Below the pieces are notes generated by a model that was given only the letters and a program-made list of their open reading frames with translations, had not been told where the DNA came from and ran no database searches. From a virus (lineage: Duplodnaviria; Caudoviricetes): a stretch of DNA of 64,000 bases. Made by a program: the position numbers and the translations under genes. Shown in pieces: positions 1 through 63,181 of the stretch (position 1 is its first letter; every line of letters begins with the position of its first letter). The stretch spans positions 52,166 to 116,165 of the IMG/VR virus record IMGVR_UViG_2687453145_000002, one strand, 5' to 3'.

Positions 1-2
1 CA

Positions 3-353
3 CTCAAGGCGTGGACCGGGGGCGATCCCAAGCGCCTGCAGTTTATCAAGGAGGCCAACCAACATGGCAAACTGAGCAGTCTGCTGGATTCCCCGGCCAA
101 GATGAACACGGCCTTTGAGCTTTGGCGCCAAGATGTTGCGAAAGAGGAGGCAGCCAAGCAAGCGGCGGCATCTGCTGAGAAGGTGCGCAACATGGAAGGA
201 GGTAAAGATCAGCCGCATAACTACCGCGCAGCAGAAGAGGCGGCCGTGAATGCGGTTATTGCATCATTTGCAAATGGACAGCCGACGCTCAACAAGGCAC
301 CAGATGGTGCGGCAGCCTATCAGGCGATGAGCCTGGCCCAGGCTCGCCGATAG
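3..353 (+). CDS. C-terminal part of a DNA-ejection (internal virion) protein, 5' partial
   Basis: Open from position 3 (LKAWTGGDPKRLQFIKEANQHGKL...AYQAMSLAQARR); homologous to the end of 58854-59849 with a longer internal segment. Confidence 0.85.
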   Translation, partial: LKAWTGGDPKRLQFIKEANQHGKLSSLLDSPAKMNTAFELWRQDVAKEEAAKQAAASAEKVRNMEGGKDQPHNYRAAEEAAVNAVIASFANGQPTLNKAPDGAAAYQAMSLAQARR

Positions 354-393
354 TTGCCTTTCACCTACCCCAGCGTTAGCATCTCTCCATCGT
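354..393 (+). promoter_or_regulatory. Late-type sigma70 promoter of the giant gene with a pause-like element
   Basis: TTGCCT-17bp(ending AGCGT)-TAGCAT, then CATCGT 5 nt downstream; same design at 38099, 44454, 51187, 59850. Confidence 0.7.
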
Positions 394-424
394 CGATCAG
401 TCTGCATGCTGATCGCCCCATCTC

Positions 425-463
425 AAAAGCCCCAAACGGTTCGCCGCTCGGGGCTTTTCTTTT
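425..463 (+). terminator. Intrinsic terminator in the leader of the giant gene
   Basis: AAGCCCC...CGG-TTCG-CCG...GGGGCTT followed by TTCTTTT; conserved at 59923-59961. Confidence 0.75.
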
Positions 464-483
464 GCTCGAAATCCGAGGACACC

Positions 484-6400: not shown

Positions 6401-9400
6401 TTGGCCTTGATGCTGCCGCCATTGAGGCGATGAGCGCGCCGGTACTGGTCCGCGAGCGGCTGACCGAGATGGACGATCAGCAACTGCGTGACTTCGTGGT
6501 GGACTCCAACACCGACGCCAAGATGGCGAACAGTGCCGCCGAGGATGCCGGCGCCGACGCGGGCAAGCTGACAGACGACATGCTGGATCTGCTCAACATC
6601 CCTGAGGGGGGCGACGTACTGGCGAGCCAGAACAACCGATTCCTCCAGGCGTTCCTGTCTGCCATCGGCGAGAACCAGAGCAACAGCTATGTGAGCCGGG
6701 ACGGGCAGTGGAATGATGCCTACCGCAAGCGGGTGACGGCGGCCATCTTCGCCTACGGCTACGGCAACCAGCGGCTGCTGGATGCGGCCACCGGCGAAGT
6801 GGACGCGGACGGCCGTAACATCACTACCGCCCTGATCAACAACGCCGTGGGCATGGCCAAGTTGCGCCAGCACTCGCCGGAGCGGGCCAAGGTTATCTCC
6901 AACTACCTCGCCGAGGCAGTGGAGAGCATCGCCCGCGCCAAGCGCAGCGGGCAGTCCCTGCAAGAAATGGCCGCTCAGTCTGATATGCTGGGAGGCGACA
7001 CCAGCCCAGAGGGCAGCCTGCTGGCCCAGGCCATCGCGGCCAGCGCCCGCAGTGCCAAGGCGATCACCGGCATGGTTGGCGACATCCTGACTATGCTCAA
7101 CAAGACCACTTCCGCCGACATGTTCGGCGCGGCGGTGGACCCTGCAACCCCGGAGACAGCGATCAATGAAACCCTCAAGGCCATCAGCGCCTACAACCAG
7201 CAAAAAGCCAGCCAACCCAAGCCCGGCGGCGATCTTTTTGGCCTCGCCGGAGCACGGAATAACCACGGCGCAGCGCCAAGCGTTCCGCGATCTGGTGACG
7301 CAAGCGCAGCAAAAGGCGCAGGAGGAGTAACCGAGGGGCGCCTCGAGCTGGACGGGGTAAGTATCCGTATTCCGGCCATCGACGAGGAGCAGCAACGCCT
7401 CTACAACCAAGCCACCCACCGGGGCCAGGGCGTGAACTTTGCCAGCGGCATCAGCACCGGCGTGGGGCGGATCCTCAATGACCTGAAGGATGCCGGCCTA
7501 CTGGACACGGTAGAGCAGAGGGCGGCCGCCGAGGCTGAGGTGCAAGCCTGGGCCAATGAGGAGGCCATCAACGCCCGCAAGCTGATGCGCGACGGCATCA
7601 AAAACCCGAGCTGGGCGATCACCGGCCGTTCTGGTCGCAAGGCCCAGAGCAGCGACGCCCAGGACGCCGAGAACCGCCGCCAAGCCGCCCACCACAAAGA
7701 CCAGTCAGACCGCATCACGGCCCTGCGCGGAGAGCTGAAGAAGCTGCGCCCGAAGGAGGTGATCGGGAAAGATTCGTTCAACTACGCATGGGGCAAGGCC
7801 AAAGGCATGATCGCCGACTACGCCAGCGCCCAGAGCAACGGGCAGCCCAATCTGCTGGCCAGTCTGCGCAAGAGCATGAATGCCGAGCTGGCCCGCTACC
7901 TGCAATCCATGGGCAAGATCGACGCACCCAACTTCATCAAGACCCTGAAGGAGCAGGATCAGCGCCTGAAGGCCGCCGGCCATGACGGCTTGGTGGCCAT
8001 CGTGGGTGCGCGCTCCAACCCGGGCAAGATCATCTCCAACGCCATCGATGGCCGGATCCGCTTCTCCAAGCAAGCCATGTCACAAGGGATGCGACCTGCT
8101 AAACACCTGACTCGCAAGGAGGCTGAGCTGGTAACCAAGGGGTGGTTCAAGCAGTACCGCGGCGCTTCCGGCATAGATGTGCAGATCCACGCAACCCAGG
8201 CTGAACTGGAGGAATCCCTCGGGCTGGATGCCAAGGACGGATTGATCCGTCGCGCGGCGTTTGACGACGATGCAGGCACTCTCCATGTGGCTGCCGACAC
8301 CATCTCCGACCCCAAGCGGATGCGCGAGATCCTGCGCCATGAGGTGCTGGCCCACTACGGCCTGGCCAACGTCCTGGGTGATGGGGAATACACCAAGCTG
8401 ATGAGCCGTCTCATCCAGTCGCAGAAGGACCCCAGCATGAAGCCGGTGTGGGACTGGGTAAACACCCATTACGCCGACGAGGACATCGGCACCAAGGCCG
8501 AAGAGGTGGTGGCTCACCTCGCCGAACTGGAACAGGGGGCTTGGGGCCGTGGCTGGGATCGGGTTGTTGCTTGGGTTACCCGGGCGCTGCGAGCGGTCGG
8601 TTTTGTGCCTGATGGCATTACCGCCGCGGAGACGCGTTCCCTGATCGAGGGACTGGGCAAGAAGTTGCAGCGTAGCGGCCCAGACGACAGCGGGCCGGAT
8701 GGCGGCAAGAAGTTCAGCCAGGAAGCCGAGCGGCCAGCCCTGAAAGGCGGTATCAAGATGAGCCAGGCCAGTACCGCAGCTGATGCGGCCATGGAGAAGC
8801 TCAACCTGGGCCCCAAGCCCGACATCATCGACAAGACCAAAACCAACCTGAACAAGCTCCGTCAAGTTGACCGTGGCGTGGTCAGCTCATGGGTTGATCG
8901 CGTCATCAAAAAAGCCAATACCGAGGTGCTCGACGCGCTGGCCCCCATCAAGTACGCCGAGGAGGCTGCCGGCATTACCGATGCTGCTGACTCCGGCTAT
9001 GTGGCTGCACGGATGGCGACGGGGGCCGCCTCCACCATGCAGGCGACCATGCTTTACGGTTTGCCGGAGTGGAAGGATGGGGTGATCCAGCGCAAGGCGG
9101 GCACCGGCGAGAAGGATGCGCTGCTGGGAATCTTTGCCGACCTGGGAGCTGACCTGCACAACTGGCTGGGCTGGATGGCCGGCCACCGGGCCGAGCTGTT
9201 GCTGGCCCAAGGGCGTGAGAACCTTCTCGACGCCCAGGACATCGCTGCCCTCAAGGCTCAAGGTAAAGGCAAAGAGGCCAAGTTTCTTGACGCCAAAGCG
9301 CGCTGGAATCGGCTCAATGCCGCCACCCTGGACCTGGGACAAGAAGCTGGGCTCTTCACCAAAGAGGCCCGGGCGGAGTTCGAAAGCGAGTGGTACATCC

Positions 9401-11337: not shown

Positions 11338-11410
11338 GGGGTAATAGCGGCCCTAGCTGAGCCTCTGTGATAGGGGTAATCTGGGGCCTTTATCGCAGAG
11401 GGCCCTGACC

Positions 11411-11611
11411 ATGTGGATTCTGTTTGCTCTGATAATGATGGTGGTGGCGCTGAAAGCATTCAGTGTTAGTTTCACCCTAGCGTTGATACCGATAGCGATA
11501 GGGGTCTGGTGTTTCAGTAAATCCAACCGTGAGAGCCTGGATAACTTCATGGCCTTCACTTTCATCATTGTACTGATTGGTTTTGCTGTGAATGTGTTGG
11601 TTTCGCCTTAG
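11411..11611 (+). CDS. Small membrane protein (moron)
   Basis: 66 aa, 2-3 hydrophobic segments, GAGGG SD, lower GC than flanks. Confidence 0.75.
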   Translation: MWILFALIMMVVALKAFSVSFTLALIPIAIGVWCFSKSNRESLDNFMAFTFIIVLIGFAVNVLVSP

Positions 11612-11793
11612 TAAGGTGTAAGTTGCGCATCACTCTCACCAAGTGATGTCTTGAACATACTGGTTTCACGGATCTATGTCACATTGCCGTTGGCTAGTTT
11701 TGTTAGGCTCAACTTAACTACCGAAATGGTATTGATCTTATTGCTTAGTCATGGGATAAGAGGCAGACCCAACTTATGCACAGGATGTGCGTA

Positions 11794-11822
11794 TTGACAA
11801 TTGGGTGCGTTTTTGGTATAGT
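11794..11822 (+). promoter_or_regulatory. Near-consensus sigma70 promoter of the moron
   Basis: TTGACA-17bp-TATAGT with extended -10 TG. Confidence 0.85.
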
Positions 11823-11852
11823 ATTGCGACTCGAAAATCGATAGAGACTCGT

Positions 11853-12614
11853 ATGACCACCACTGTGTGCGATTTCATTAACAGGGTTGTTGCAAGTGAT
11901 TCTCGGTGGTCAACAAAGTTAGATGATTATGGTTTCTACAACCATATCGCTTTTGTCGATGACACCGGTTTTGGAAAGTTGTCGATAAGAGGCAATCACG
12001 TCTTATGCTTAGCAGGTGACGGGAAGCTTATCGAGCAGTGGAAGCAGTGGTGGAAGGCGCCGGTTTTGTATCGGGAGCATCCTCCGGTAGTTTCCGATGC
12101 TGGGGCTGTAGTGATCTATGCAATCAATAGAGCCACTAATCAGCTCGAGTTTGGGCTTCAATTGAGTTGCGCTCACTTAGACCCAGACACTCGCCATATA
12201 CAGGCTGTTTTTTCTGGTTCTGGCGAGACGGCTGCACTGTCAAACTGGCAATCAGCCAAATGCGCTAAAACCGCAGTAGAGCAAGCAAAGCTCAGAGACG
12301 TGTTTACAGGTGGTACTGTACGTTTCGTCAATTTGAGCACCGATGAGATGGACATTGAGGATGAATTGGATTCCCTTGATGCTGTGCTTAATCAATTGCA
12401 AGAGAGAGGGTATGTTATGAGACAAGACGACCCCATGAAAACTATGATTCCTGTTAAAGAATTTGACGCAAAAACTATATCGGCCCTTGCATCAAACGGT
12501 TCTTTGCAGCTATCCGCTCCTTGTGGCAACGAGGCTGTTGTCTGGGATGAGGCTGCCAAGCATAGACTTGGGGCCTTCATTGATAGAGTTATAGAATCGG
12601 AAAGCCGTTCTTAA
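11853..12614 (+). CDS. Proteasome-beta/HslV-like Ntn-hydrolase (253 aa) with C-terminal extension
   Basis: True start (M)TTT lies downstream of the promoter; motifs T1, ASDSR, GK, LAG, SGSG, RDVFTGG in proteasome order. Confidence 0.7.
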   Translation: MTTTVCDFINRVVASDSRWSTKLDDYGFYNHIAFVDDTGFGKLSIRGNHVLCLAGDGKLIEQWKQWWKAPVLYREHPPVVSDAGAVVIYAINRATNQLEFGLQLSCAHLDPDTRHIQAVFSGSGETAALSNWQSAKCAKTAVEQAKLRDVFTGGTVRFVNLSTDEMDIEDELDSLDAVLNQLQERGYVMRQDDPMKTMIPVKEFDAKTISALASNGSLQLSAPCGNEAVVWDEAAKHRLGAFIDRVIESESRS

Positions 12615-12634
12615 TCTATTGATATTATTAGCTT

Positions 12635-12668
12635 AAACCCGTGCATCATGTGCGGGTTTTTGTTTTTT
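12635..12668 (+). terminator. Intrinsic terminator of the moron
   Basis: AAACCCGTGCA-TCA-TGTGCGGGTTT plus T-tract. Confidence 0.8.
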
Positions 12669-12812
12669 GGCTAATAGCTCTAGTAAGTGATCATAAGCGG
12701 GAACCTACAGATATCCGATGTCATTCATCTTTTCGTATTGATCTAAGTCAGCAAAATAGTTCCTGCTCTTCCGTCCCTGGTTAATTTTGTTGATAACCAG
12801 TACATGGGGGCA

Positions 12813-13259
12813 TTATTGCCCCTCTTGCCCCTCTTGCCCCTCTTGCCCCTCTTGCCCCTCTTGCCCCTCTTGCCCCTCTTGCCCCTCTTGTGTTCCTGAC
12901 TTTCTGTCAGTATTTCTCATAACCGCTTTCACTTTCTTTCGCACTTCGTCAGTCATTACACTCCTGATGCTGTTCAGCAGCTCTCTGACCTCTCGCAGTT
13001 CGTCATTCAGAATCTGTGAGTTGTAGATTACTTGAGGGACAAGCACAGTGTCTGGAGACAGCGGGTGCGGAATGCTCGTACTTTTGAAGATCTGCTCACC
13101 ACCACTCTCAGCAAGTTCAGCGTCTTCCTCAAAAGTCCTTTGAAGCCGATAAACGATCTCTGCGTTCATCGTTCGGCCAGCTGCAGCTGCAGCTTCATGG
13201 ATGGCAGTGTGTAGCTCCCTTGGTAGGCGCAACGCAGTCTTCTGTATGTCTTTGCTCAT
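12813..13259 (-). CDS. Arc/Mnt-family ribbon-helix-helix repressor (Mnt-like) with an (EGQ)8 tail
   Basis: TALRLPRELH...GRTMNAEIVYRLQ; divergent from arc-ant; paralog 62480-62779. Confidence 0.85.
   Translation of the reverse strand: MSKDIQKTALRLPRELHTAIHEAAAAAGRTMNAEIVYRLQRTFEEDAELAESGGEQIFKSTSIPHPLSPDTVLVPQVIYNSQILNDELREVRELLNSIRSVMTDEVRKKVKAVMRNTDRKSGTQEGQEGQEGQEGQEGQEGQEGQEGQ
12816..12890. repeat. 9-bp tandem repeat (TTGCCCCTC)x8
   Basis: Directly visible; encodes the EGQ repeats on the minus strand. Confidence 0.97.
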
Positions 13260-13339
13260 GAGGTGTGACTTTGGTTTGTTCAGTAAGCATTAGCTTAACA
13301 AAAGCAATAGGTGAATTCATTCGGACTTTATCAAATCGC

Positions 13340-13392
13340 TTGCCTTCACTATGAAGTCTAACTATCATTAATTTCGACTTCACAGTAAAGTC
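13340..13392 (+). promoter_or_regulatory. Pant-like promoter with two 17-bp palindromic operators
   Basis: TTGCCT-17-TATCAT; GCCTTCACTATGAAGTC (13342-13358) and GACTTCACAGTAAAGTC (13376-13392); cf. GGCTTCATAGTGAAGCC at 62881. Confidence 0.7.
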
Positions 13393-13411
13393 TAGGTGAG
13401 AAGGAGGAGTG

Positions 13412-13582
13412 ATGATAGAAGACAAGGTACGCAACACATCCCTGCGCTTACCGCGTGAGATACGCGATTGGTTAACGAACCGAGCAGCAGATAACTGCCG
13501 CAGCTTCAACGGTGAGATCACTATGATCCTGAAGCAGCAGATGGAGAGGGAGCAAGATAGTGAGAAAGCAGAGTCGGTCTGA
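13412..13582 (+). CDS. Arc-like repressor (56 aa), below the ORF-track size cutoff
   Basis: AGGAGG SD; MIEDKVRNTSLRLPREIRDWLTNRAADNCRSFNGEITMILKQ... Confidence 0.85.
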   Translation: MIEDKVRNTSLRLPREIRDWLTNRAADNCRSFNGEITMILKQQMEREQDSEKAESV

Positions 13583-13585
13583 TGC

Positions 13586-13664
13586 CAGAAAGAGTTCGAC
13601 CCCAACTGGTGGAACAGTTGAGGCCGAGAGATGTAAACCCACCACGCAAATGATTGGAGTTACT
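13586..13664 (-). ncRNA. Sar-like antisense RNA covering the antirepressor RBS
   Basis: Two minus-strand hairpins with G.U pairs that covary with 63101-63179; -10 TATAAT lies inside the first ant codons. Confidence 0.65.
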
Positions 13665-13666
13665 TT

Positions 13667-14467
13667 ATGATTATACAACAACAGTATCAGCAAACCAAAG
13701 TTTTGCCAGGGCCGCTGAATTCCATGCCGGTAATCGCCGGGGTGGAGATCACTACTGATGAGGCGGGGCGGTTCAACCTGAACGCCCTTCACCGGGCCAG
13801 TCAACTTGGTTCGAGCAAAGCCCCAGCTCAGTGGTTGCGCACCAAGCATGCGCAAGAGCTGGTCGCTGAGGTGGAAAAACAAACTGTGCAGATTTGCATA
13901 GTTTCCGTTGAAGGCCGTAACGGCGGTACCTTCGCCCACGAGTTGCTTGCGATCTCCTATGCTGGCTGGATCAGCCCATCATTCCAGCTTCAGGTCAATC
14001 AGGTGTTTCTGGATTACCGTATCGGCAAGCTGGGCCCAATCACCCCACAACTGACCACCATAGAGATCCTGCAGATCGCCATGCAGTCCGAGCAAGAACG
14101 GCTGCGCCTGGAGGCCGCCAACCACGAGTTGGAACTGCAGATGGAGGCAGCCAAACCCATGGTGGAGGCGCTGGAGAGGATCGCTTTGGCCGATGGCTCG
14201 CTGAACCTGACCGAGGCCGCCAAGGCGCTGCAACAGCAGCCGAAGAAGTTCAATCAGCACCTGTGCAGCCTGCGCTGGATCTACAAGCGTGCCGGTGGCA
14301 AGCAGTGGCTTGGTTATCAGGACAAGGTGCAGCAGGGACTGGTTGAGCACAAGGTTACGATGGTGCCCTTGGCTGATGGCGGTGAGCGTCTTTGTGAACA
14401 GGTTCGCATCACACCAAAGGGGCTGACCAAGCTGGCCCAGCAATTCTGTGTCGGGGGTGTGCAATGA
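13667..14467 (+). CDS. ant: Antirepressor, KilA-N plus ANT/KilA-C domains
   Basis: GRFNLNALHRA...GGTFAHELLAISYAGWISPSF; ADGSLNLTEAAKAL...QVRITPKGLTKLA. Confidence 0.9.
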   Translation: MIIQQQYQQTKVLPGPLNSMPVIAGVEITTDEAGRFNLNALHRASQLGSSKAPAQWLRTKHAQELVAEVEKQTVQICIVSVEGRNGGTFAHELLAISYAGWISPSFQLQVNQVFLDYRIGKLGPITPQLTTIEILQIAMQSEQERLRLEAANHELELQMEAAKPMVEALERIALADGSLNLTEAAKALQQQPKKFNQHLCSLRWIYKRAGGKQWLGYQDKVQQGLVEHKVTMVPLADGGERLCEQVRITPKGLTKLAQQFCVGGVQ

Positions 14468-19418: not shown

Positions 19419-19558
19419 CAGCGCACCTCCTTGGGGTCGATGCCAAGCTGGCTGGCCAGCTGGCGGCGCTCTATCTCGTCGCGTTTTCGCTGGCGTTGTT
19501 GGAGTAGCGGTTTCGTCTTGCGGTCTTGCACCATGCCGCGGTGGCGGTAGAGGCTCAT
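19418..19558 (-). CDS. Small basic hypothetical protein
   Basis: Coupled on both sides; MSLYRHRG...RDEIERRQLASQLGID. Confidence 0.6.
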   Translation of the reverse strand: MSLYRHRGMVQDRKTKPLLQQRQRKRDEIERRQLASQLGIDPKEVR

Positions 19559-20772
19559 GCTGCCTCCTGGTGTTGCTCTTCCTGCTTGCTGGCGGCGAAC
19601 TGCTCCTCCCACAGCTTCACCTTGAGCTCGCAGGCATAGACGATCTGGCCGACCAGCTTCTGGCCGATCCCCTTCACCTTGTCCAGCTTGTTCCCCTGGT
19701 GGCTCATCACCTTGTAGAGGGTGTCGATCCCGGCCTCTTCCAGCGGCTTGATGGTGCGCGGCGGTAGGCCGCATTCATGGATGCTGACTGTCTTGGCCCA
19801 TTCGGTGCGGGGTTGCAGGTGGGGGTGGCTCTGCTCCAGCGCCTCCTGCATGAAGGCGAAGATGTCCTGCGTCATGGCATCAGGGGCCCCGGAACCATAG
19901 GGCGCCGGGTAGATGGGGTTCATCCACTGGCTCAGCATGACCGAGCAGCCGGAGCCATCGGATTTCATGGCGTGCAGCTTCCAGCTGAGGTCGTTGATGA
20001 GGTAGGGGAGGTTTGATTTCAGGCCATGATCCACCATGTATACGTCCCAGAGCGTGCCATCCTCACCCTTGTAGGTTTTGCCGAGGTGTTTGTGCCAGAT
20101 CAGCTTAGCGGCTCGGGCGCTCTCCAGCTCCATGATGACGGTGTGACGGCGCTCCAGCTCGCGATCCTGCTCGTTGATGGCGCTCAGCAGCTCACTGATA
20201 CGGCGCCCCAGCTTTAACACTTCCGCACGGTAGGAGGCTTCGTTGCTCTTGTGCTTGGCGATCGCAGTGCGCTGCTCCTCCAGCAGCTCGTTCTTCTCCT
20301 TGATGCGGCGTTTCATGCCTGCCGGATCCATGGCGTTGAGGTCGGCCAGTTGACGCTCGAGCTGGCGGGTGGCGTACTGCAGGGCGCCGTACTTGGTCTG
20401 GACATCGTTCAGGATGCGCTGGGTCTTGTAGAGCTCGTCTGCCATGGCCTCCAGCTCGGCGGCGCCTTCTTGCCGTGCTGCTGCAATGCGCTGCTCGGCT
20501 TCGGCTACCTGCTGGCGCAGCTGGCTGACCAGGGCAGCCTGGGTGAGCAGCTCGCCATCCCGGCCTTCCAGCTCGCCGATCAGGGTGTTGAACTCGTCGA
20601 TGTGGGCGTTGGCCGCCTCGCTGATCATGGTCAGGTTGGCGTTGAGCAGGGTTTCGAAGCTGCCGATGGCGGCCTTGGCCGGGCCGTCCGGCATCAGCAG
20701 GATGTTGCGGATCTGGCTGGTGAGGGTGTTCAGGGCGAGACTGGTCGCCTCGCTGGGGTTCAGCGTGGTCAT
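19555..20772 (-). CDS. Coiled-coil protein with a C-terminal RNA polymerase alpha-CTD-like domain
   Basis: Long heptad region; SIHECGLPPRTIKPLEEAGIDTL...KVKGIGQKLVGQI resembles the alpha-CTD HhH fold. Confidence 0.7.
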   Translation of the reverse strand: MTTLNPSEATSLALNTLTSQIRNILLMPDGPAKAAIGSFETLLNANLTMISEAANAHIDEFNTLIGELEGRDGELLTQAALVSQLRQQVAEAEQRIAAARQEGAAELEAMADELYKTQRILNDVQTKYGALQYATRQLERQLADLNAMDPAGMKRRIKEKNELLEEQRTAIAKHKSNEASYRAEVLKLGRRISELLSAINEQDRELERRHTVIMELESARAAKLIWHKHLGKTYKGEDGTLWDVYMVDHGLKSNLPYLINDLSWKLHAMKSDGSGCSVMLSQWMNPIYPAPYGSGAPDAMTQDIFAFMQEALEQSHPHLQPRTEWAKTVSIHECGLPPRTIKPLEEAGIDTLYKVMSHQGNKLDKVKGIGQKLVGQIVYACELKVKLWEEQFAASKQEEQHQEAA

Positions 20773-23778: not shown

Positions 23779-24290
23779 GCTGCACCAGCCTTGAGCTTGG
23801 CGATAAGCTCCACCGCATCGGTCAGACTGAGCAGCCAAGTTTCATGCCGCCCACCCACAACAAGCTCACCCCATGGCGCCGGTTCGCCATTTTGGTGCAG
23901 GCCATAGACGCCGCCGCTTTCTTTCATCAGCGCCTCTACGTCACCGGAAAGCTTTTCCAGCGCAGCCAGCAGCTCGTCGCGCTGGGATGTCAGCTCGACC
24001 TCTCGTTTGCTTACACGGCGCTCTTGGGTGGTTAGCGCGCGGTAAACGATGAGATGTTGTGGGTATCCGTACCCACCTCGGCATAGCCTTACCTCAGTGC
24101 GACGAGTTAAAAATCCAGCAACCACAAGTCGCCTGAGTGCCTTCCCGAGAAGCTTCCGATCTTTTGACCCTCTGACCGTTCTCAAGCCGCCATCAATGGC
24201 CTCACTCAGACACATTTCCCCATTTTTTTCAAAAAATGAGACGATCGTGGCGTCATGACCTGCAGGGCAGTCGCTATTGGTAGAATTCAT
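23775..24290 (-). CDS. Hypothetical phage protein
   Basis: ATGA-coupled on both sides. Confidence 0.7.
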   Translation of the reverse strand: MNSTNSDCPAGHDATIVSFFEKNGEMCLSEAIDGGLRTVRGSKDRKLLGKALRRLVVAGFLTRRTEVRLCRGGYGYPQHLIVYRALTTQERRVSKREVELTSQRDELLAALEKLSGDVEALMKESGGVYGLHQNGEPAPWGELVVGGRHETWLLSLTDAVELIAKLKAGAA

Positions 24291-24652
24291 GCTGCGCTCC
24301 TGTGTTGGTACTGCTCCCATTGCTGCTCGCTCATGGCGTCGTGCAGGGCGGCGAGGTGACTGCGCCAGGCGGCCTGTGCCAGCTCTGCCAGCCCGGCATC
24401 GACCACCTGGTCAATGAACTGCATCAGCGGCGCTTGCCGGCCTTCGTGCATCAGCAGCCAGATAGCCTGGTTGTAGTGGCTATGCTGGTCCGCATTGAGT
24501 TCGCCCAGCAGGGTGGCCGGGTCGGTTTCGAGCTGGCCGGCCAGTAGCAGGGGGCGGTTGGCCGCGGTCCACTCGGCGACCCACTCGGCCTTGGCGTTGG
24601 CCTCGGCCTCGCGGCTTTCGAGCAGGGCGAGCATTTCGTTATCTCGGGTCAT
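24287..24652 (-). CDS. Hypothetical phage protein
   Basis: Operon context upstream of exo/bet. Confidence 0.75.
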   Translation of the reverse strand: MTRDNEMLALLESREAEANAKAEWVAEWTAANRPLLLAGQLETDPATLLGELNADQHSHYNQAIWLLMHEGRQAPLMQFIDQVVDAGLAELAQAAWRSHLAALHDAMSEQQWEQYQHRSAA

Positions 24653-24654
24653 GG

Positions 24655-24846
24655 CTAGAGCTCCTGGGCAAGTCGCTGAGCACGCCGTTCGTGATACTCC
24701 TCGATGGCACGGCGGGTGGCGGCCTTGGTCTTGGCCATCCGCTTTTGCTCGGCGGATGGGGCGGCGTCTACGTGGTACTTGCGGCGGGTGGGTGGCACCA
24801 TTGCGCCGCGAAAGCCCATCAGCTGGGCTTCGGTCAGTGGTTTCAT
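24655..24846 (-). CDS. Small basic hypothetical protein
   Basis: CAGGACCCAG RBS; first gene after a terminator. Confidence 0.7.
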   Translation of the reverse strand: MKPLTEAQLMGFRGAMVPPTRRKYHVDAAPSAEQKRMAKTKAATRRAIEEYHERRAQRLAQEL

Positions 24847-24873
24847 GGTCTGGGTCCTGTGGTTGTAAAAACG

Positions 24874-24898
24874 AAAAAGCCCAGCAGTTGCTGGGCTT
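24874..24898 (-). terminator. Intrinsic terminator after the Sel1 gene
   Basis: AAGCCCAGCA/TGCTGGGCTT stem with a U-tract on the minus strand. Confidence 0.75.
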
Positions 24899-24920
24899 GG
24901 TCGGATGGTCTAAGTGGTGA

Positions 24921-25808
24921 CTACTTGGGTTGGTATTTCTCGAAGTAGCTTGCCGCCAACTCTTGGCCTTTGGCTAGTTGATCTGGGGTGAGTCGCTTCG
25001 CGGCATTATCACGTGCATCGTGGGAGCTCCGCTCGCCATTTGCTGCAGCAACAGAATACCAAGCGTATGACTTCACATAATCCTGCGGTACCCCTTCACC
25101 TCGCGCATATCCTGCACCTAAGTTGTATTGCGCATCTGGTAAACCTTGCTCTGCGGCTTTTCGATACCAAGAGAAAGCCTTTTTGAAGTCTTGCCGCACA
25201 CCTCGACCTTGGTAATGTATCACCCCGAGATTGTACTGCGCTTCGGCAACACCTTGTTCGGCGGCCTTGCTGTACCATATCAAGGCTTTGCTAAAATCCT
25301 GTTTTACTCCTTGGCCCTGATCGTACATTACGCCAATGTTGTATTGCGCTGAAGGAAAGCCTTGCTGGGCCGCCTTGTTATACCAGTCGAACGCCAGTTT
25401 TTTATCCTGCACCACAGTAGTGCCACTGGCATACATCCACCCAAGCTGGTTTTGTGCGGCAATCAAACCAAGGTCGGCTGCTTTTTTGAACCAGAACACG
25501 GCGGTTTTGTTATTTTGCGGAACGCCTCGGCCATCTTCATACATACCGCCTAAAAAGAACTGTGAAGTTGCATGGTTTTGTTCGGCTGCTTTTTGGTACC
25601 AAAATACTGCTTGCTTATCATCCTGAGGTACACCGTCACCAATGTCATAGCTAAACCCAAGGCGATATTGGTCGTCCCTACTGCCAGCCTCGGCTAGCTT
25701 CATAATCTTGGCGATGTCAGTATTATCTGGCTCTGCCTGCGCTACTGGCATAACCAGCAACGTCAACCCCAGCAACACCGCTCCTATCCAACCCCCTACT
25801 CGATTCAT
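24921..25808 (-). CDS. Exported Sel1-like repeat protein (moron)
   Basis: Signal peptide ending AQA; repeated AQYNLG.MY..G.GV.QD...A..WY.KAAEQG; lower GC. Confidence 0.92.
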   Translation of the reverse strand: MNRVGGWIGAVLLGLTLLVMPVAQAEPDNTDIAKIMKLAEAGSRDDQYRLGFSYDIGDGVPQDDKQAVFWYQKAAEQNHATSQFFLGGMYEDGRGVPQNNKTAVFWFKKAADLGLIAAQNQLGWMYASGTTVVQDKKLAFDWYNKAAQQGFPSAQYNIGVMYDQGQGVKQDFSKALIWYSKAAEQGVAEAQYNLGVIHYQGRGVRQDFKKAFSWYRKAAEQGLPDAQYNLGAGYARGEGVPQDYVKSYAWYSVAAANGERSSHDARDNAAKRLTPDQLAKGQELAASYFEKYQPK

Positions 25809-26010
25809 AACCCCTCCTTGTTTCGGAAGGGGGCATTATGGATCTGTTTGGGGCGGCTGTCAGCCTGCAACCCCCTGATGCAAGGGGCTCCAGGCTGGCC
25901 ACTGTTGCCAGTGGCCTGCGTTCACGTTCACGCACCGCCTTCCGGATTGAACGGGGTATCGGCGCATCCCTACCGGCATCGGGATTCGTGGTTGTGAGCC
26001 GGTTCCAGGT

Positions 26011-26022
26011 TGTTAAAGAGCA
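26011..26022 (-). promoter_or_regulatory. boxA antitermination element
   Basis: TGCTCTTTAACA on the minus strand equals the rrn/nut boxA consensus. Confidence 0.75.
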
Positions 26023-26121
26023 GGCCCAGCCGAATTTGGCGTGAGCGAAGCCAAAGCATCCTTGCGGTGCTTGAGAAAGAGGCTTTGGCTACGGCGCTAT
26101 GAGGGAAGCGCCAGACCCGGG

Positions 26122-26376
26122 TCAGATGGCGTTGCGGTGGAACTCGGCCCGCCAGTGGAGTAGGGCGCGGCATTTCATGGCGGTCATGGTGCGCACCTTG
26201 GCAGACTGGGCGGTGCGGGCTGCGACGAGCTGGTGCCGCTCGGTGGCCATCATGGCAACCGTCAAGCGTTGCTTGATGGCCCGGCGGCGGGCGGCGTTAC
26301 CGTTCAGGCGGTCGGCGATGGCAGTTACAATCTGGTCTGCATGTTTCGCGGCCCTGGAAAAAATGCGCTTGGTCAT
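26122..26376 (-). CDS. First pL gene, arginine-rich, possible N-like antiterminator
   Basis: AGGAG SD; NAARRRAIKQR motif; position after pL; an in-frame ATG also exists at 26433. Confidence 0.55.
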   Translation of the reverse strand: MTKRIFSRAAKHADQIVTAIADRLNGNAARRRAIKQRLTVAMMATERHQLVAARTAQSAKVRTMTAMKCRALLHWRAEFHRNAI

Positions 26377-26384
26377 GGTACATT
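26376..26384 (+). promoter_or_regulatory. Extended -10 promoter for the candidate sRNA
   Basis: TGGTACATT fits TGnTAnnnT; TGGAAA 18 bp upstream. Confidence 0.55.
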
Positions 26385-26390
26385 CACTCC

Positions 26391-26530
26391 TGTTGGCGAG
26401 TTGGTCCTCGCTAATTCCCAGTTGATTCGTCATGCTGGGTCCTGATTGCTGGGGTTGGTCCCTCGGCTTTCACTGACCGGGTGGTACCCGGTCCTTCGAA
26501 GCCCGCCTTGTGCGGGCTTTGTCGTTCTTA
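26391..26530 (+). ncRNA. Candidate multi-target anti-RBS sRNA (may extend to ~26615)
   Basis: Plus-strand hairpins with G.U pairs; GGTCC motifs at 26403, 26438, 26457, 26490 and 26572; terminator-like stem 26499-26530; complementary to 13 early-gene RBSs. Confidence 0.65.
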
Positions 26531-26665
26531 CGCGCTGGTCAGGCGCTTCACTGCTGCCCTGGTTGGGGCTGGGTCCTGTTGCTGGGTGGTACTCAATTCT
26601 TTGCTGGCTTTTTACTCCGCCAGAGCGGGAGGTTTGCCGGTATTGCCTCCGGCCTACTGATGAGT

Positions 26666-26741
26666 GATTGTTTTCTCGAACAAGATGAAGGTTAATATTC
26701 GCGAACCTGCCAGTCAATAGAAAATGTTCGAGATAACGAAT
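26666..26741 (-). promoter_or_regulatory. pL promoter and three OL operators
   Basis: TTGACT-17-TAACCT (26717-26689); GTTCG-N6-CGAAC-like sites at 26666, 26691 and 26726. Confidence 0.75.
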
Positions 26742-26824
26742 TTTTTAGAGTGAGCGCCATTGCTGTCGATCGAGAGATGCAAAAAAGCCCGCATAAAGCG
26801 GGCTCTTAGTGAAGATTGGTGCTG

Positions 26825-27046
26825 TTATTTCAGGTAGATATTGATGGCTATCGCTACACCGAGACCAAGAAATGCTGAGGTGTAGAGGCCCGTATCAAAG
26901 ATGGCGTGAAACGCAAAGGGGGAGGCGCATAAGCCAATAATCATGGCTAATGTCACGTTTTTGTTTAATCGCTCATCTTCCTTATGCCTCGCTGCCCTTG
27001 CTTCTGCCGCCATCTGTTTCATCATTTCACGTTCGCCTTTTTCCAT
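26825..27046 (-). CDS. Two-TM membrane protein co-transcribed with cI
   Basis: AAGGAG SD directly after cI (rex-like slot); terminator-like stem at 26781-26805. Confidence 0.75.
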   Translation of the reverse strand: MEKGEREMMKQMAAEARAARHKEDERLNKNVTLAMIIGLCASPFAFHAIFDTGLYTSAFLGLGVAIAINIYLK

Positions 27047-27051
27047 GGCGG

Positions 27052-27666
27052 TTACTCCTTCACATCTCTACGCAGTTCAACCATTCGGCCATAAATCAGC
27101 GCCTCTTTGACTGGGATGACACCAAGACGCGGATCATCGGTGACCAATGTAATACCTGATAGGCCATCCAGAGCCTTCAGTAAGCGCTCCTGATTGTTGC
27201 TATCCAGTCGCACCAGAACGATATCGTTATGGCGTGGTTCCCGATCTGCAAGGTCAATGACGCAGATGTCACCACTCTTGATGCCAGAACCGATAAGGTT
27301 GTCATCGTTGGCAACCACGCCAATCAGATGCCCATTGGCATCACTGAATAGGTGGCGGCCGCTATCCAAGGTTGAAAGAGCATCGGTCGGGTGTTTGCCG
27401 AGATCTGACATTTCCCAGACTGGCACCTTGCCAAGGTTAATGTCGGAGACATAGGTGCCACTTTCTTTGCCGGTGTAGAGCCAGAGAGGATCGCAACCGA
27501 GCGCTTTGGCGATAGAAAGCAGACTGCTGACTCGCAAATCCTTGAGCGGGTCAGATAAGAGAACGGAGACCACAGCTTTGCTGACCCCAGACCTGCGTAC
27601 CAGGTCAGCTTGCTTCCAGCCCCGCTCTTTGAGCATGTATTCCAGTCGGTCTCTAAAAGAGGTCAT
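27052..27666 (-). CDS. cI: CI-like repressor, HTH plus degenerate S24 domain
   Basis: MTSFRDRL...QADLVRRSGVS...IAKALGCDPLWLYTG; C-terminal GDICVID...IYGRMVE. Confidence 0.9.
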   Translation of the reverse strand: MTSFRDRLEYMLKERGWKQADLVRRSGVSKAVVSVLLSDPLKDLRVSSLLSIAKALGCDPLWLYTGKESGTYVSDINLGKVPVWEMSDLGKHPTDALSTLDSGRHLFSDANGHLIGVVANDDNLIGSGIKSGDICVIDLADREPRHNDIVLVRLDSNNQERLLKALDGLSGITLVTDDPRLGVIPVKEALIYGRMVELRRDVKE

Positions 27667-27675
27667 GTTGATCTC

Positions 27676-27763
27676 GTTCGCATAATAAAACCATTTTCTA
27701 TTTTCACCTATTGCATGTGCTAAATGGCGATCGCTTGACTTGTTCGGTTTTAAGAATAAAAAT
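27676..27763 (+). promoter_or_regulatory. pR promoter and OR operators
   Basis: TTGACT at 27735 with an A-rich -10; operators GTTCGCATAATAAAAC (27676) and GTTCGGTTTTAAGAAT (27742). Confidence 0.65.
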
Positions 27764-27798
27764 GCCCTTGTATTGTCAGACACCACAGGACCCGACCA

Positions 27799-28014
27799 AT
27801 GAAGAAGCAAGACGTTATCAGCCATTTCGGCAACATGGCCCGCGCCATGAAAGCGATCGGTATCGCTCGTAGCGTGGCCGTGACGTGGGGAGATATTGTC
27901 CCGGCACAGCATGCCGTCAGCTTTGTTATCGCCAGCAACGGCGAGCTGCGGCTGGGGCTGGAGGATTACCCCCTGCTCAAGGAGCAAGACCATTCTACCC
28001 AGCAGGCCGCCTGA
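27799..28014 (+). CDS. cro: Cro-like repressor
   Basis: MKKQDVISHFG...AIGIARSVAVTWGDIVP; divergent from cI. Confidence 0.88.
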   Translation: MKKQDVISHFGNMARAMKAIGIARSVAVTWGDIVPAQHAVSFVIASNGELRLGLEDYPLLKEQDHSTQQAA

Positions 28015-28055
28015 CCACCGGCCAGCTTTTCTACCCAACATAGAGGACCAACCCC

Positions 28056-28445
28056 ATGGGAAGAGTATCGCTCCCAGATCATGAAAATATGAGCACCCGC
28101 TCCCCGCTGAAAGTGCGCGGCACCCCAGCCCAGCGCCAGGTATGGCAGGAAGTAGGCGCCGAGTGTGGCATGACCGAAACCGCATTTGCCCGCACCTCGC
28201 TGCTGATCCTGCTCCAGGCCATATCTCAGCACGAGCCCACCATATTGGCGAGGGCCGTTAAACGGGCCAATCGGAGCTTGCTGGAGCAGGGTTTTCCGCC
28301 CGTGACCGTCGAGGAGATCCTGGAGGGCTCCGGCCTGCCCGAGCGCGGCCTGCTCCAGTTCAGCCAAGAAGACGAGGCCGCCTACAACGAGGAGCGCCCG
28401 CTGCGCCCCCTGCAAAAACTCATCAACTTCGTCCTCGGGAGGTAA
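28056..28445 (+). CDS. Regulator in the cII position
   Basis: Synteny after cro; N-terminus RHH-like. Confidence 0.6.
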   Translation: MGRVSLPDHENMSTRSPLKVRGTPAQRQVWQEVGAECGMTETAFARTSLLILLQAISQHEPTILARAVKRANRSLLEQGFPPVTVEEILEGSGLPERGLLQFSQEDEAAYNEERPLRPLQKLINFVLGR

Positions 28446-28448
28446 CCC

Positions 28449-28667
28449 ATGACCATGCAATTACGTCCGCCGCGCCCGGCATCCCAGCACGTCAGCGATC
28501 GCGACAACATCATCCTGAAGTCGGTCATGCACGAGCTGGCCCTAGCCCTCGACGAGCCGCTGATCTCGACCGCTCACGCAGCCGGCACCGACCGCCAGGC
28601 CGTCCGCCTGGCCCGCGAGCTGGAAGCCCGCACCCTGGAGCGTGCCGAAGCACAACCCAGCGCATAA
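28449..28667 (+). CDS. Hypothetical phage protein
   Basis: GGAGGT SD, operon context. Confidence 0.7.
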   Translation: MTMQLRPPRPASQHVSDRDNIILKSVMHELALALDEPLISTAHAAGTDRQAVRLARELEARTLERAEAQPSA

Positions 28668-28720
28668 GCAGCACCTGCCCGCCTCACCAGCGGGCAGCTT
28701 AAACACCACAGGACCCAACA

Positions 28721-28876
28721 ATGACCAATTCAACCATGGCCCATGGGGGCCACCCCTTGCTGAACGACCTCAACCACTGCCCACTGTGCGGCAGTGATCT
28801 GCAGTCCGGCACCAATGACCGCGCCTACGAGTGCCCCACCTGTGAGTACACCGAGCAGGAGGTGGCTCATGGTTAA
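28721..28876 (+). CDS. Small zinc-ribbon protein (51 aa)
   Basis: CPLC...CPTC; CAGGACCCAA RBS. Confidence 0.65.
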   Translation: MTNSTMAHGGHPLLNDLNHCPLCGSDLQSGTNDRAYECPTCEYTEQEVAHG

Positions 28877-29000
28877 CACCTCATCCGTTGCCACCTGGGA
28901 GCTCTATGAGCTCAAGAAGCGGGAATTGCAAGCAATGGGGTTATCCCAGCGTGAGTACGAATTGGCTGTGCGCCGATTGGCTGATGAATTGGAGGTGTGA
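28869..29000 (+). CDS. Small hypothetical protein (43 aa)
   Basis: GGAGGT SD; YELKKRELQAMGLSQREYELAVRRLADELEV. Confidence 0.65.
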   Translation: MVNTSSVATWELYELKKRELQAMGLSQREYELAVRRLADELEV

Positions 29001-59849: not shown

Positions 59850-59961
59850 TTGCCTTTCAACCACCCCAGCGTTAGCATCTCCCCATAGTCGGTCAGTCTG
59901 CATGCTGGCCACCCCATCCAATAAAGCCCTGATCGGTTCGCCGGTCGGGGCTTTTCTTTTG
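59850..59961 (+). promoter_or_regulatory. Late promoter, pause-like element and terminator before giant gene copy 2
   Basis: TTGCCT-17(AGCGT)-TAGCAT, CATAGT; hairpins covary with 393-463. Confidence 0.7.
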
Positions 59962-59980
59962 CCAGAAACCCGAGGACACC

Positions 59981-62779: not shown

Positions 62780-62862
62780 GCTGCAACAGTGACTCTCGAT
62801 TGTTTATATACCCCCATATTAACAACAACGAGAGTTGAATTCATATCGACATCAAAAAGTCA

Positions 62863-63179: not shown

Positions 63180-63181
63180 GT

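Follow-up and report, generated by a model that had tools for sequence, protein, structure and literature searches.

An interval at the head of the leftward early operon of a lambda-like Aeromonas prophage is probably a plus-strand small RNA (sRNA) gene, encoding a new cis-antisense sRNA of the antiterminator-like gene of 84 amino acids (84-aa gene) beside it. The relatives compared share the plus-strand structure and the signals for a promoter and a terminator, always next to the 84-aa gene, and, as judged from the pattern of substitutions, the conserved structured RNA is real and lies on the plus strand. A plus-strand sRNA gene cis-antisense to the pL leader had been proposed in a preliminary description of this DNA, and the proposal is strongly supported here by wobble covariation, an invariant TG-n-TAnnnT, an invariant terminator that reads in one direction, and a hairpin that persists in all 19 of its sequence classes.

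The window, that is the whole stretch of DNA analysed, comprises 64,000 nt (IMGVR_UViG_2687453145_000002, positions 52,166-116,165), and all coordinates given here are window positions. The phage is a lambda-like Aeromonas prophage with integrase, excisionase, RdgC, RecT, repressor, O, DnaB and NinB in its gene context. Sequence comparisons are based on an alignment, A1, of 52 sequences: the window and 51 distinct related Aeromonas loci. The features are collected in Table 1.

Table 1. Features of the putative sRNA gene and the adjoining leftward early region (window positions).
Feature	Position	Strand	Basis or remark
BoxA-like site, TGCTCTTTAACAA	26010..26022	-	follows the 84-aa gene at a distance of about 100 nt
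First gene of the leftward early operon, 84 aa, N position	26122..26376	-	ORF
Extended -10, TGGTACATT (TG-n-TAnnnT)	26376..26384	+	sequence; A1 comparison
Predicted 5' end G26392 (8 nt past the -10) and hairpin H1	26392..26415	+	fold, A1 pairing; 9-bp stem, loop UUGGUC; includes GUUGGUCCUC
Hairpin H2	26417..26439	+	shape kept, sequence variable; 3' arm enters CUGGGUCCUG (26435-26444)
Hairpin H3	26448..26467	+	7-bp stem, loop UUGGUC (GCUGGGG-UUGGUC-CCUCGGC)
Hairpin H4 (GACCGGG-UGGUA-CCCGGUC), then GGUCCUU	26475..26493	+	fold, A1
Hairpin H5 and U-rich tract UUUGUCGUUCUU, intrinsic terminator	26497..26529	+	terminator scan
Conserved block past the terminator: H6, H7, second CUGGGUCCUG (26569-26578)	26532..26588	+	A1
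Candidate pL promoter (TTGACT, 17 nt, TAACCT)	26689..26717	-	read from sequence; flanked by TTCGNGAA-type repeats

The plus strand of 26388-26532 folds into five hairpins at -66.4 kcal/mol, compared with -46.0 +/- 3.7 kcal/mol in 200 shuffles, none of which was as good (z = -5.57); the minus strand also outfolds its shuffles (z = -3.0). Throughout A1, the 39 local stem pairs are paired in 99.8% of cells, against 37-54% in slid controls, and compensatory double changes occur at six of them; none of 500 shuffles reached any of these measures. Eighteen of the 39 pairs vary via G.U or U.G (317 cells), which pair only on the plus strand, and A.C or C.A is never seen. Four stem pairs run through the full series G-C, G.U and A-U, never via A.C. 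The A1 consensus folds at -65.3 kcal/mol on the plus strand and at -34.7 kcal/mol as the reverse complement, with 2377 and 1932 canonical cells out of 2385, respectively. The plus strand is rich in G and U and poor in A (15 A in 199 nt), which by itself favours G.U over A.C, yet its few stem A's always pair with U.

The nine pairs of H1 are formed in all 52 sequences, with two compensatory pairs and G.U variants at five further pairs. The G.U-using hairpin TTGGCGAG-TTGGTC-CTCGCTAA that had been read from the window alone is this one (26393-26414), and it has a G.U pair. H2 varies in sequence between relatives, and all 19 of its distinct sequence classes among the 52 sequences form a hairpin (mean -10.9 kcal/mol on the plus strand versus -8.05 kcal/mol for the reverse complement). 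H3 is likewise paired throughout, with pair types that include UG/CG/UA, GC/GU/AU and GC/GU, while H4 shows the series CG/UG/UA/GC and GC/GU and changes its stem length by paired insertions. The UUGGUC loop, as counted from A1, is kept in 43 of the 52 sequences in H1 and in 51 of 52 in H3.

A terminator-like stem had been noted at 26499-26530, and the terminator scan confirmed it on the plus strand, with a stem at 26497-26521 followed by TTTGTCGTTCTT as the sole such site in 25800-28300. The H5 terminator works in the plus direction only, the minus reading being without a U tract; its stem and tail are invariant (52/52), its loop varies, one C-G pair is inserted in six sequences, and the U tract is interrupted (UUUGUCGUUCUU). 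Beyond it, H6 (26532-26546, GCGCU-GGUCA-GGCGC) is invariant and H7 (26556-26569) has GC in 41 and UG in eight sequences, a double substitution compatible with pairing on the plus strand alone. The H5-to-H6 stretch of 60 nt is identical in all 52 sequences, and conservation stops near 26588. The block 26532-26588 could belong to the pL leader or, by read-through, to the RNA, and the 60 nt conserved beyond the terminator, together with the plus-only double change in H7, make the 3' end, and even the role of H5, uncertain. A coding role for the small ORF that starts at ATG 26432 on the plus RNA was rejected, as the ORF is missing in classes without CATG.

At the other end of the putative gene, the extended -10 that the preliminary description had pointed out is present on the plus strand, its T overlapping the start codon (CAT, 26374-26376) of the minus-strand 84-aa gene. 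Its A1 columns T11, G12, T14, A15 and T19 are invariant (52/52), and the hexamer occurs as TGGTACATT in 39 sequences, TGTTATCCT in six, TGATACAGT in five and TGGTATATT in two, with the predicted 5'-end G 8 nt downstream in every variant. The invariant TG and TAnnnT fall in a spacer for which no requirement from the opposite-strand gene is known. No match to a -35 was found for this element, and a consensus promoter scan made no call at it because the scan also requires a -35.

The 84-aa protein has 51 distinct variants and an arginine-rich stretch, NGNAARRRAIKQR; it matched nothing in Pfam, PHROGs or the PDB. An N-like nature is suggested by its position, the arginine-rich stretch and the boxA-like site, which we take to resemble the boxA sequences of rrn and lambda and which is present as an exact GCTCTTTAACAA in 44 of 56 loci and as GCTCTTTAACAG in eight more (52/56 in total). 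The placement of this site near the 84-aa gene suggests an N-type antitermination module. The candidate pL promoter was not listed by the promoter scan and is proposed from its position downstream of the terminator of the repressor operon (about 26785-26805). In all six loci tested, about 10 nt separate the conserved block from the end of a tRNA-Pro gene that precedes it on the minus-equivalent strand, so that a minus transcript is certainly made and processed there.

The predicted RNA is fully complementary to the leader of the 84-aa gene, which is its predicted cis target. The antisense relationship to the pL leader that had been proposed is supported, but the start of the first gene has to be corrected from ATG 26433, which is absent or out of register in many relatives, to ATG 26376; in phiARM81mr, a family member carried by Aeromonas sp. 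ARM81, the ATG equivalent to 26433 is annotated as the start of p21. With the true start at 26376, the predicted 5' end of the RNA (26392) abuts the Shine-Dalgarno sequence AGGAG (26391-26387), one base away, and does not cover it: the RNA would cover the upstream leader and the alternative ATG 26433, not the Shine-Dalgarno sequence or the start codon.

From these features we infer the transcription, the timing and a repressive outcome of the RNA. Transcribed from the extended -10, which shares a base with the start codon of the 84-aa gene, it would terminate at the one-directional intrinsic terminator and be about 135-140 nt long (roughly 26392 to roughly 26525-26530), possibly reading through to about 26590, with five hairpins, or seven with the read-through part, and with loops and linkers that expose YUGGUC and GGUCCU motifs. 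In the lysogen, where the early promoter is shut and no collision would occur at the promoter of the RNA, the RNA would accumulate and pair with a leaky or incoming leader transcript, so that ribosome entry would be blocked or the duplex marked for cleavage. Such pairing would keep the antiterminator-like protein low and hence the delayed-early genes too. As the leader is near-identical across the phage family and the repressor regions differ, the RNA could also hit superinfecting relatives of another repressor specificity.

The element and the 84-aa gene travel together. Via the protein, the element was found beside the 84-aa gene in 49 viral and eight genome loci, and a search with a 26-mer of the RNA added ten further contigs, again with the element beside the 84-aa gene. 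The element is present in 59 viral contigs and in 14 of 46 Aeromonas species genomes, and 399 other genomes sampled within the same class yielded no full-length copy. One isolated phage carries it, annotated only as part of a hypothetical protein. Parts of the stretch occur in 20 public sequencing runs, all as assembled contigs that do not show strand, ends or level; in four such runs (from four studies), the contigs span 25844-26636, the conserved gene-plus-RNA module (about 25860-26640), and end where relatives diverge. A search of 24000-29000 against Rfam 15 gave nine matches at E values up to 10, none of them near its gathering threshold; the best plus-strand matches, in 26409-26529, were all below threshold (rnk_pseudo, 19.4 of 55 bits; sX14, 18.5 of 80; isrK, 14.9 of 50). 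Literature searches found no description of this RNA.

The RNA shares its most conserved positions with a start signal of the phage. Five GGTCC motifs, as previously counted, lie between 26403 and 26577, and they are invariant A1 columns (52/52). Two 10-mers of the RNA had been reported as exact complements of ribosome-binding sites, and both matches are there: GAGGACCAAC, the complement of 26400-26409, has further copies 1-3 nt before the ATGs at 16571, 20772 and 28056, and CAGGACCCAG, the complement of the 10-mer at 26435-26444 and 26569-26578, precedes the ATGs at 18557 (RdgC) and 24846, with another copy 17 nt before the ATG at 33260 of the Q-position gene. Four copies of GAGGACCAAC occur in the window where 0.06 are expected, and five of CAGGACCCAG where 0.35 are expected; neither count was reached in 100 shuffles. 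Bare AGGACC is not enriched in the window (35 versus 31.2 expected), so that the signal resides in its placement before start codons. Three genes named earlier as variant targets (17387, 18756 and 16939) are weak, having only GGACT or GGAGG. The custom ribosome-binding site suggested at the outset is a real and phage-specific start signal, AGGACC...ACCATG, carried in the window by 11 starts that all open ORFs of 40 codons or more. In five related proviruses, AGGACC..ATG and its reversed control were counted 13 and 0, 6 and 1, 17 and 6, 21 and 4, and 21 and 3 times; in an Aeromonas chromosome of roughly 5 Mb, four of the six matches to a stricter pattern lie within 11 kb of the element. Start-signal matches numbered 105 in the 14 genomes with the element versus 86 in the 32 without it, and the excess clusters beside the element. 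The start signal, which each phage places before about twelve lead genes and which the host chromosome almost lacks, is a finding in its own right.

These matches had led to the proposal of a master trans-acting sRNA, whose GGUCC, UUGGUC and CUGGGUCCUG would pair with AGGACC(N2-4)ACCAUG and so block, in a lysogen or in a superinfecting relative, the cro-, cII- and Q-position genes, xis, rdgC and further lead genes; we consider this doubtful. Pairing energies, computed for 16-nt windows with opening energies included, do separate the ten AGGACC sites (-4.5 to -11.7 kcal/mol, at about -14 to +5 around the ATG) from 27 other starts (-3.7 to +12.4 kcal/mol). Global duplex prediction was rejected: its interactions ran over 60-120 nt, contained huge loops and had net energies above zero. 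The invariant GGUCC motifs and the phage-specific signal are in keeping with such pairing, as are the commonest signal classes, AGGACCAACC and AGGACCCAGA (62 each of 418), which fit the two near-universal motif classes of the RNA. Covariation between loops and start signals, which had been suggested as a check, gave a mixed answer. Over 62 phages and 418 sites, a phage's own RNA fits its own start signals 0.254 nt better than the RNAs of other phages do (0 of 5000 permutations), but the effect is tiny, and concerted evolution of similar cassettes within a genome would give the same. For the four bases after GGACC it is marginal (0.246 versus 0.23; 274 of 5000 permutations as high), and the common CGAC class (32 sites) is used in none of 15 cases where the RNA carries CGAC. 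Provirus G402 runs contrary: both of its UUGGUC loops are changed, yet three of its genes retain GAGGACCAAC, matching their own RNA over 7-9 nt as against 11 nt with the RNAs of other phages, and GAGGACCTAC start sites, which would match the UAGGUC variant of the H1 loop, were seen in G402, G403 and G404 only in the leader itself. Opening the seeds, moreover, much of whose length is in stems, costs 10-12.6 kcal/mol, although the net energies stay negative, as given above; the RNA leaves UUGGUC and UCCUG unpaired, and the flanking bases of each 10-mer are in stems. A/C-rich AGGA flanks are also expected from selection for unstructured start regions, and with two letters free in such flanks, chance repeats of a 10-mer arise more easily. 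The start signal, finally, marks not coupled genes but those that start after a gap, so that a translational reason would suffice to explain it. The claim of one RNA blocking cro, Q, xis and most lead genes therefore stays doubtful, given the small and mixed covariation, the counter-example of G402 and the opening cost. That the RNA of a resident prophage silences in one stroke the early genes (the N-like gene and those in the cro, cII, Q, xis and rdgC positions), its own and those of incoming relatives of any repressor type, we likewise hold to be unlikely; if true, it would amount to a family-wide RNA immunity atop the protein repressors, exerted via a private address, AGGACC..ACCAUG, before the lead gene of each early module.

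The complementarity to start sites would be an automatic by-product if the interval were only a structured leader of the leftward early transcript (nut-like, put-like or acting in ribosome standby) with relic start cassettes and no plus RNA. The place between a pL-like promoter and the first early gene is the usual one for a lambda-type regulatory leader, and this reading accommodates the minus strand's advantage over its shuffles, the adjoining tRNA-Pro gene and six GGA-containing start-like motifs, one of which stands ahead of an in-frame ATG (26433) in some family members. It is nevertheless very improbable: on the minus strand, the 18 wobble-varying pairs would become A.C mismatches, no variant is wobble-compatible on the minus strand alone, the consensus fold loses almost half of its energy, the U tract of H5 is seen in the plus direction only, and the invariant TG-n-TAnnnT is left unexplained. 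A leader of the nut or put type would have conserved structure on the minus strand and a boxA within the element; neither was found, the boxA-like site lying outside the interval, downstream of the gene. CsrA-type binding to the GGA-rich minus leader was set aside, since it is the opposite strand whose structure is conserved and since GGA spans the border between stem and loop. Alternatively, the hairpins might titrate or recruit a phage or host RNA-binding protein, such as the arginine-rich 84-aa protein or an RNA chaperone, instead of pairing with a message. UGGU recurs in the loops of H1, H3, H4, H6 and H7, like the repeated motifs of multi-site decoy RNAs, the identity of the 60 nt from H5 to H6 goes beyond the needs of stem-loops, and RNA and 84-aa gene are always together. 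The YUGG loops, however, fit a YUNR turn, which is typical of the recognition loops of antisense RNAs, so that a protein is not needed as an explanation; the 84-aa protein has no recognised RNA-binding family, and the element is kept in relatives whose loops are altered (to UAGGUC or UGGUC, or, in L030 and L111, by a different H7 loop). We regard this reading, too, as improbable and prefer that of a cis-antisense sRNA.

Among the known phage RNAs nearest in kind is Sar of P22, which is antisense to the ant message, lowers its translation and supports lysogeny (PMC12197685). Like the predicted Aeromonas RNA, Sar is small, belongs to a temperate lambda-like phage and is encoded opposite a regulatory gene, in its case over the start region. 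Sar acts on the antirepressor gene in the immI region, whereas the Aeromonas RNA faces the leader of the first pL gene. The Aeromonas RNA is longer than Sar, has five to seven hairpins and a repeated motif, and shows no likeness in sequence or model, no Rfam family reaching threshold. OOP and aQ of lambda are cis-antisense RNAs with their own promoter and terminator that tune cII and Q (PMC12197685); they overlap the 3' end or body of their target and act at a single locus, whereas the Aeromonas RNA shares motifs with many start sites. Neither an antisense RNA to an N leader nor the present RNA is among the phage RNAs in the portion of PMC12197685 consulted. LPR2 belongs to the lambda late operon and is unrelated to this RNA (bioRxiv 10.1101/2024.10.31.621285). 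STnc6030 of the Salmonella prophage BTP1 is antisense to a tailspike gene (PMC12197685). It is a prophage RNA that pairs with messages of a related incoming phage, giving immunity or exclusion independent of a protein repressor, as the Aeromonas RNA might. For the Aeromonas RNA, exclusion would follow from a near-identical leader in phages with different repressor regions. The immunity RNAs C4 of P1/P7 and CI of P4 also act by pairing on incoming phage messages; both arise by processing of RNA from the strand that also encodes their targets, and they pair via internal repeats. Repeated C/U-rich motifs that are exposed in loops or linkers and pair with ribosome-binding sites of many targets are found in the staphylococcal RsaE and RNAIII, which target ordinary host Shine-Dalgarno sequences, whereas the Aeromonas RNA would target AGGACC..ACCAUG and only the phage's own genes. 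A private start-signal address of this kind was not met in our literature searches. Cluster K mycobacteriophages have conserved, phage-specific start-associated sequences just upstream of the start codons of a subset of their genes, and we know of no RNA complementary to them; they differ in sequence and host, and the Aeromonas motif also recurs in the leader that faces a conserved RNA.

The switches of lambda-type phages are textbook examples of protein circuits, and the antisense RNAs known from them, OOP, aQ and Sar, each touch one gene. If expressed, the RNA described here would put delayed-early expression under a new control at its very first step, and it may add an RNA layer to the lysis-lysogeny switch of these phages. 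Together, the RNA and the start signal bring a long-standing question, whether phages can use RNA to address their own messages collectively, within direct experimental reach in a non-model system that can be cultured.

Opposite the leader of the leftward early (pL) operon, the window carries what is, with strong support, a conserved plus-strand RNA gene. The interval concerned, 26376-26615, belongs to a 116-kb provirus record of lambda-type layout; it is flanked on one side by the end of the repressor operon, made up of the repressor gene and a 73-aa membrane-like ORF, and on the other by the first leftward early gene. The promoter-like element, hairpin, GGTCC motifs and terminator-like stem listed in the preliminary description are all present (see table), and its sequence observation is confirmed throughout. 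Five hairpins (H1-H5) are predicted for the plus strand of 26388-26532, with a folding energy of -66.4 kcal/mol; compared with 200 shuffles, z is -5.57.

Features of the RNA locus and of the surrounding prophage (window coordinates)
Feature	Position	Strand	Remark
Extended -10 TGGTACATT	26376-26384	plus
Hairpin TTGGCGAG-TTGGTC-CTCGCTAA	26393-26414	plus
Five GGTCC motifs	26403 to 26577
Terminator-like stem	26497-26521	plus	followed by TTTGTCGTTCTT
H6; H7	26532-26546; 26556-26569	plus	beyond H5
84-aa gene	26122-26376	minus	N position
Shine-Dalgarno AGGAG of 84-aa gene	26391-26387	minus
boxA-like GCTCTTTAACA	26010-26022	minus	~100 nt downstream of 84-aa gene; kept in 52/56 related loci
Repressor operon terminator	near 26785-26805
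Candidate pL-like promoter TTGACT-17-TAACCT			3' of repressor operon terminator; read from sequence
XRE/S24-type repressor and Cro-like regulator	near 27052-28014		back to back
AGGACC start sites (included)	27799; 28056; 33260		cro-like; cII-position; Q-position gene
Integrase, excisionase-like gene, RdgC, Dam, RecT, PD-(D/E)XK nuclease		minus
Replication O, DnaB-type helicase, NinB		plus
Sel1-repeat gene, 295 aa	24921-25808	minus	six repeats, E 9e-71
405-aa early gene	19555-20772	minus	exact GAGGACCAAC signal
3643-aa ORF	406-11337	plus
690-aa ORF	59981-62053	plus

The decisive question is that of the strand, since complementarity between a leader and its opposite strand is trivial. Window positions 26366-26588 were aligned in plus orientation with 51 distinct relatives, 6 of the 57 loci being left out as exact duplicates, and RNAalifold predicted seven local hairpins. 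Their 39 pairs are standard in 99.8% of 2022 cells, with compensatory changes on both sides at 6 of the 39; none of 500 shuffles equalled any of the pairing measures, and pairing falls to 37-54% when the partner columns are slid by 1-3. G.U or U.G variation occurs at 18 of the 39 pairs (317 cells), including full G-C, G.U, A-U series at four pairs that always pass via G.U. The A.C or C.A variation expected of minus-strand wobble occurs at none, although the scarcity of A on the plus strand (15 in 199 nt) alone disfavours A.C; the A's present in stems are always opposite U; other mismatches amount to 5 cells only. Over the same columns, canonical cells number 2377/2385 on the plus strand versus 1932/2385 on the reverse complement, with consensus energies of -65.3 versus -34.7 kcal/mol. 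The segment between H1 and the first CUGGGUCCUG falls into 19 sequence classes, every one of which forms a hairpin. We take the conserved structure on the plus strand as established.

At the predicted 5' end, the alignment shows no variation in the TG or in the T, A and last T of the -10 hexamer, which reads TACATT (39 sequences), TATCCT (6), TACAGT (5) or TATATT (2). Read on the minus strand, these positions are the spacer ahead of the ATG of the 84-aa gene, and we know of no reason for that strand to keep them. In all forms H1 opens with a G (26392) that stands 8 nt downstream of the hexamer. No -35 element was found, and a promoter scan made no call at the extended -10 site. At the predicted 3' end, none of the 52 sequences differs in the H5 stem or in the TTTGTCGTTCTTACGCGC after it; the loop is variable, and six have an extra C-G pair. 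The U tract is interrupted; being U-rich in the plus direction only, it would let the early leftward transcript pass freely. Since conservation runs ~60 nt further, through H6, H7 and a second CUGGGUCCUG, and one double change in H7 pairs on the plus strand only, the RNA may extend past H5, or else this part may have a role in the leader. Assembled contigs from public runs, which carry neither strand nor ends, span the whole conserved module.

The gene opposite is listed as a 103-aa ORF starting at ATG 26433. Because many of the 51 distinct relatives lack this upstream ATG or have it shifted by non-multiples of three, and the protein is conserved from ATG 26376 onward, we take the real gene to encode 84 aa. 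For the same reason p21 of Aeromonas phage phiARM81mr (KT898134.1, 5920-6222, minus strand), annotated from the upstream ATG inside H2, probably has an N-terminus with 19 residues too many or represents an optional isoform. The 84-aa protein has no relative in Pfam, PHROGs or PDB; its 51 distinct variants keep an arginine-rich stretch, NGNAARRRxIKQRL. Position, this stretch and the boxA-like site, whose TGCTCTTTAACAA we take to be the boxA consensus of rrn operons, suggest an N-type antiterminator; its likeness to N proteins, and that of the site to boxA, is our assumption. Given the placement of the boxA-like site, a nut-like site would stand after, not before, the N-position gene. In 6 of 6 relatives tested (L002, L005, L015, L017, L030 and L052; ~2756-2840, plus strand of those loci), the early leftward leader contains a tRNA-Pro(UGG) gene that is co-oriented with the 84-aa gene and ends ~10 nt ahead of the conserved block; in the window its place is taken by 95 nt of unrelated sequence.

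The 116-kb record contains two related lambda-type prophages in tandem (seen at window 1-14000 and 59500-64000), each with its own copy of the element (G000:C1:8165-8382 and 78541-78765). They have the RNA module in common (84% identity over the element, 82% over 473 nt), and their late genes are similar. The immunity region between this module and the cro side is dissimilar, so that the two appear heteroimmune. The 3643-aa and 690-aa ORFs, with near-identical upstream sequence and start signal (GAGGACACC ATG), are probably equivalent very large tail/host-range genes of the two. Within the early leftward operon, the second gene, encoding the Sel1-repeat protein, has a low third-position GC (0.50) and looks like foreign (moron-type) cargo. 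The 405-aa gene, an odd one for an early operon, matches a PHROG named PmgS-like head morphogenesis (E 3e-110) and, weakly, the RNA polymerase alpha C-terminal domain.

Every one of the 57 related loci for which an organism is named comes from Aeromonas. An invariant 26-mer is present in 59 viral contigs, and in the 10 beyond those reached via the protein it likewise adjoins the start of the 84-aa gene. Of 46 Aeromonas species genomes, 14 contain the element, at a maximum of three copies per genome. A class-wide sample of 400 scored genomes gave a full-length match in the central Aeromonas genome only; partial matches of 22-45 nt, mostly to the terminator hairpin, occur in eleven others. Among 50,697 phage records it is found solely in phiARM81mr (98.1% identity), under hypothetical protein p21 with its start set at the upstream ATG. 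No Rfam family matched at threshold. Literature searches found neither an RNA encoded opposite the leader of an N-position gene nor an RNA that reads a start signal private to a phage, and no such RNA is described in parts of a review on phage small RNAs from 2025 (PMC12197685) or in the LPR2 passages of a lambda preprint (bioRxiv 10.1101/2024.10.31.621285).

The preliminary description had proposed that the RNA silences lytic genes in trans through a start signal shared by lead genes. The signal is real and belongs to the phage: its consensus is A/C-rich, ACCA-n-AGGACC-(2-4 nt)-ACC-ATG, and 11 window start sites of ORFs of at least 40 codons outside the RNA locus have AGGACC. The 10-mers GAGGACCAAC (4 copies versus 0.06 expected) and CAGGACCCAG (5 versus 0.35) reach counts unmatched in any shuffle; outside the interval they lie directly ahead of start codons 16571, 20772, 28056, 18557 and 24846, and 17 nt upstream of 33260. 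The proposed variant targets 17387, 18756 and 16939 proved weaker, with GGACT or GGAGG only. The bare hexamer AGGACC is not enriched (35 versus 31.2 expected), its special trait being position. Five related proviruses contain 13, 6, 17, 21 and 21 AGGACC..ATG sites versus 0, 1, 6, 4 and 3 in the reversed control. In one ~5-Mb Aeromonas chromosome, 4 of 6 matches to a stricter pattern lie within 11 kb of the element. Over 46 genomes, matches total 105 in the 14 that have the element and 86 in the other 32; the reversed control is no lower in either group, and the excess is on the element's contig, within ~10-20 kb. In phiARM81mr, GGACC precedes 8 of 34 CDS, in genes that begin after a gap, and overlapping (coupled) genes have GGAGG-type sites. 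Many Aeromonas genomes, with and without the element, contain GAGGACCCAGACATG once (e.g. G001:C1:721406-721420), a conserved host gene start resembling the phage signal, which could be a host target or mimic.

That the RNA reads this signal in trans is plausible, unproven and, weighing the following points, rather unlikely. Its GGUCC motifs are its most conserved positions, and the two commonest start-signal classes match its two near-universal motif classes; however, the A/C-rich flank around AGGA is also expected from selection for unstructured start regions, and the repeated 10-mers are much less surprising because only two letters are free there. For 10 AGGACC sites, the predicted net pairing energy (16-nt windows, opening energies of both partners included) ranges from -4.5 to -11.7 kcal/mol, the pairing spanning -14 to +5 around the ATG; for 27 other starts it ranges from -3.7 to +12.4. 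Each RNA matches its own sites better than do other phages' RNAs (0/5000 permutations; 62 regions, 418 sites), but by a very small 0.254 nt, equally expected from within-genome homogenisation of similar cassettes. For the four bases after GGACC the test is marginal (274/5000), the frequent CGAC class does not track the RNA, and one provirus (G402) keeps its GAGGACCAAC start sites although both UUGGUC loops are altered.

The structure, its signals and its linkage to the 84-aa gene are shown; they are best read as cis-antisense control of the first early gene, for which we infer the steps of expression, capture and repression. The extended -10 promoter, which faces pL, would give an RNA of ~135-140 nt; with pL shut, as in the lysogen, this promoter would be undisturbed and the RNA would accumulate. 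A leaky or incoming leader transcript would be caught via YUGG loops, a type typical of antisense-RNA recognition, and the duplex, predicted to end one base from the Shine-Dalgarno sequence, would block ribosome entry or trigger cleavage, thereby keeping the antiterminator-like protein low. Conservation of the leader far exceeds that of the repressor regions, and all 52 sequences share one identical block of 60 nt; since immunity regions differ, as between the two tandem prophages, the RNA could also act on heteroimmune relatives.
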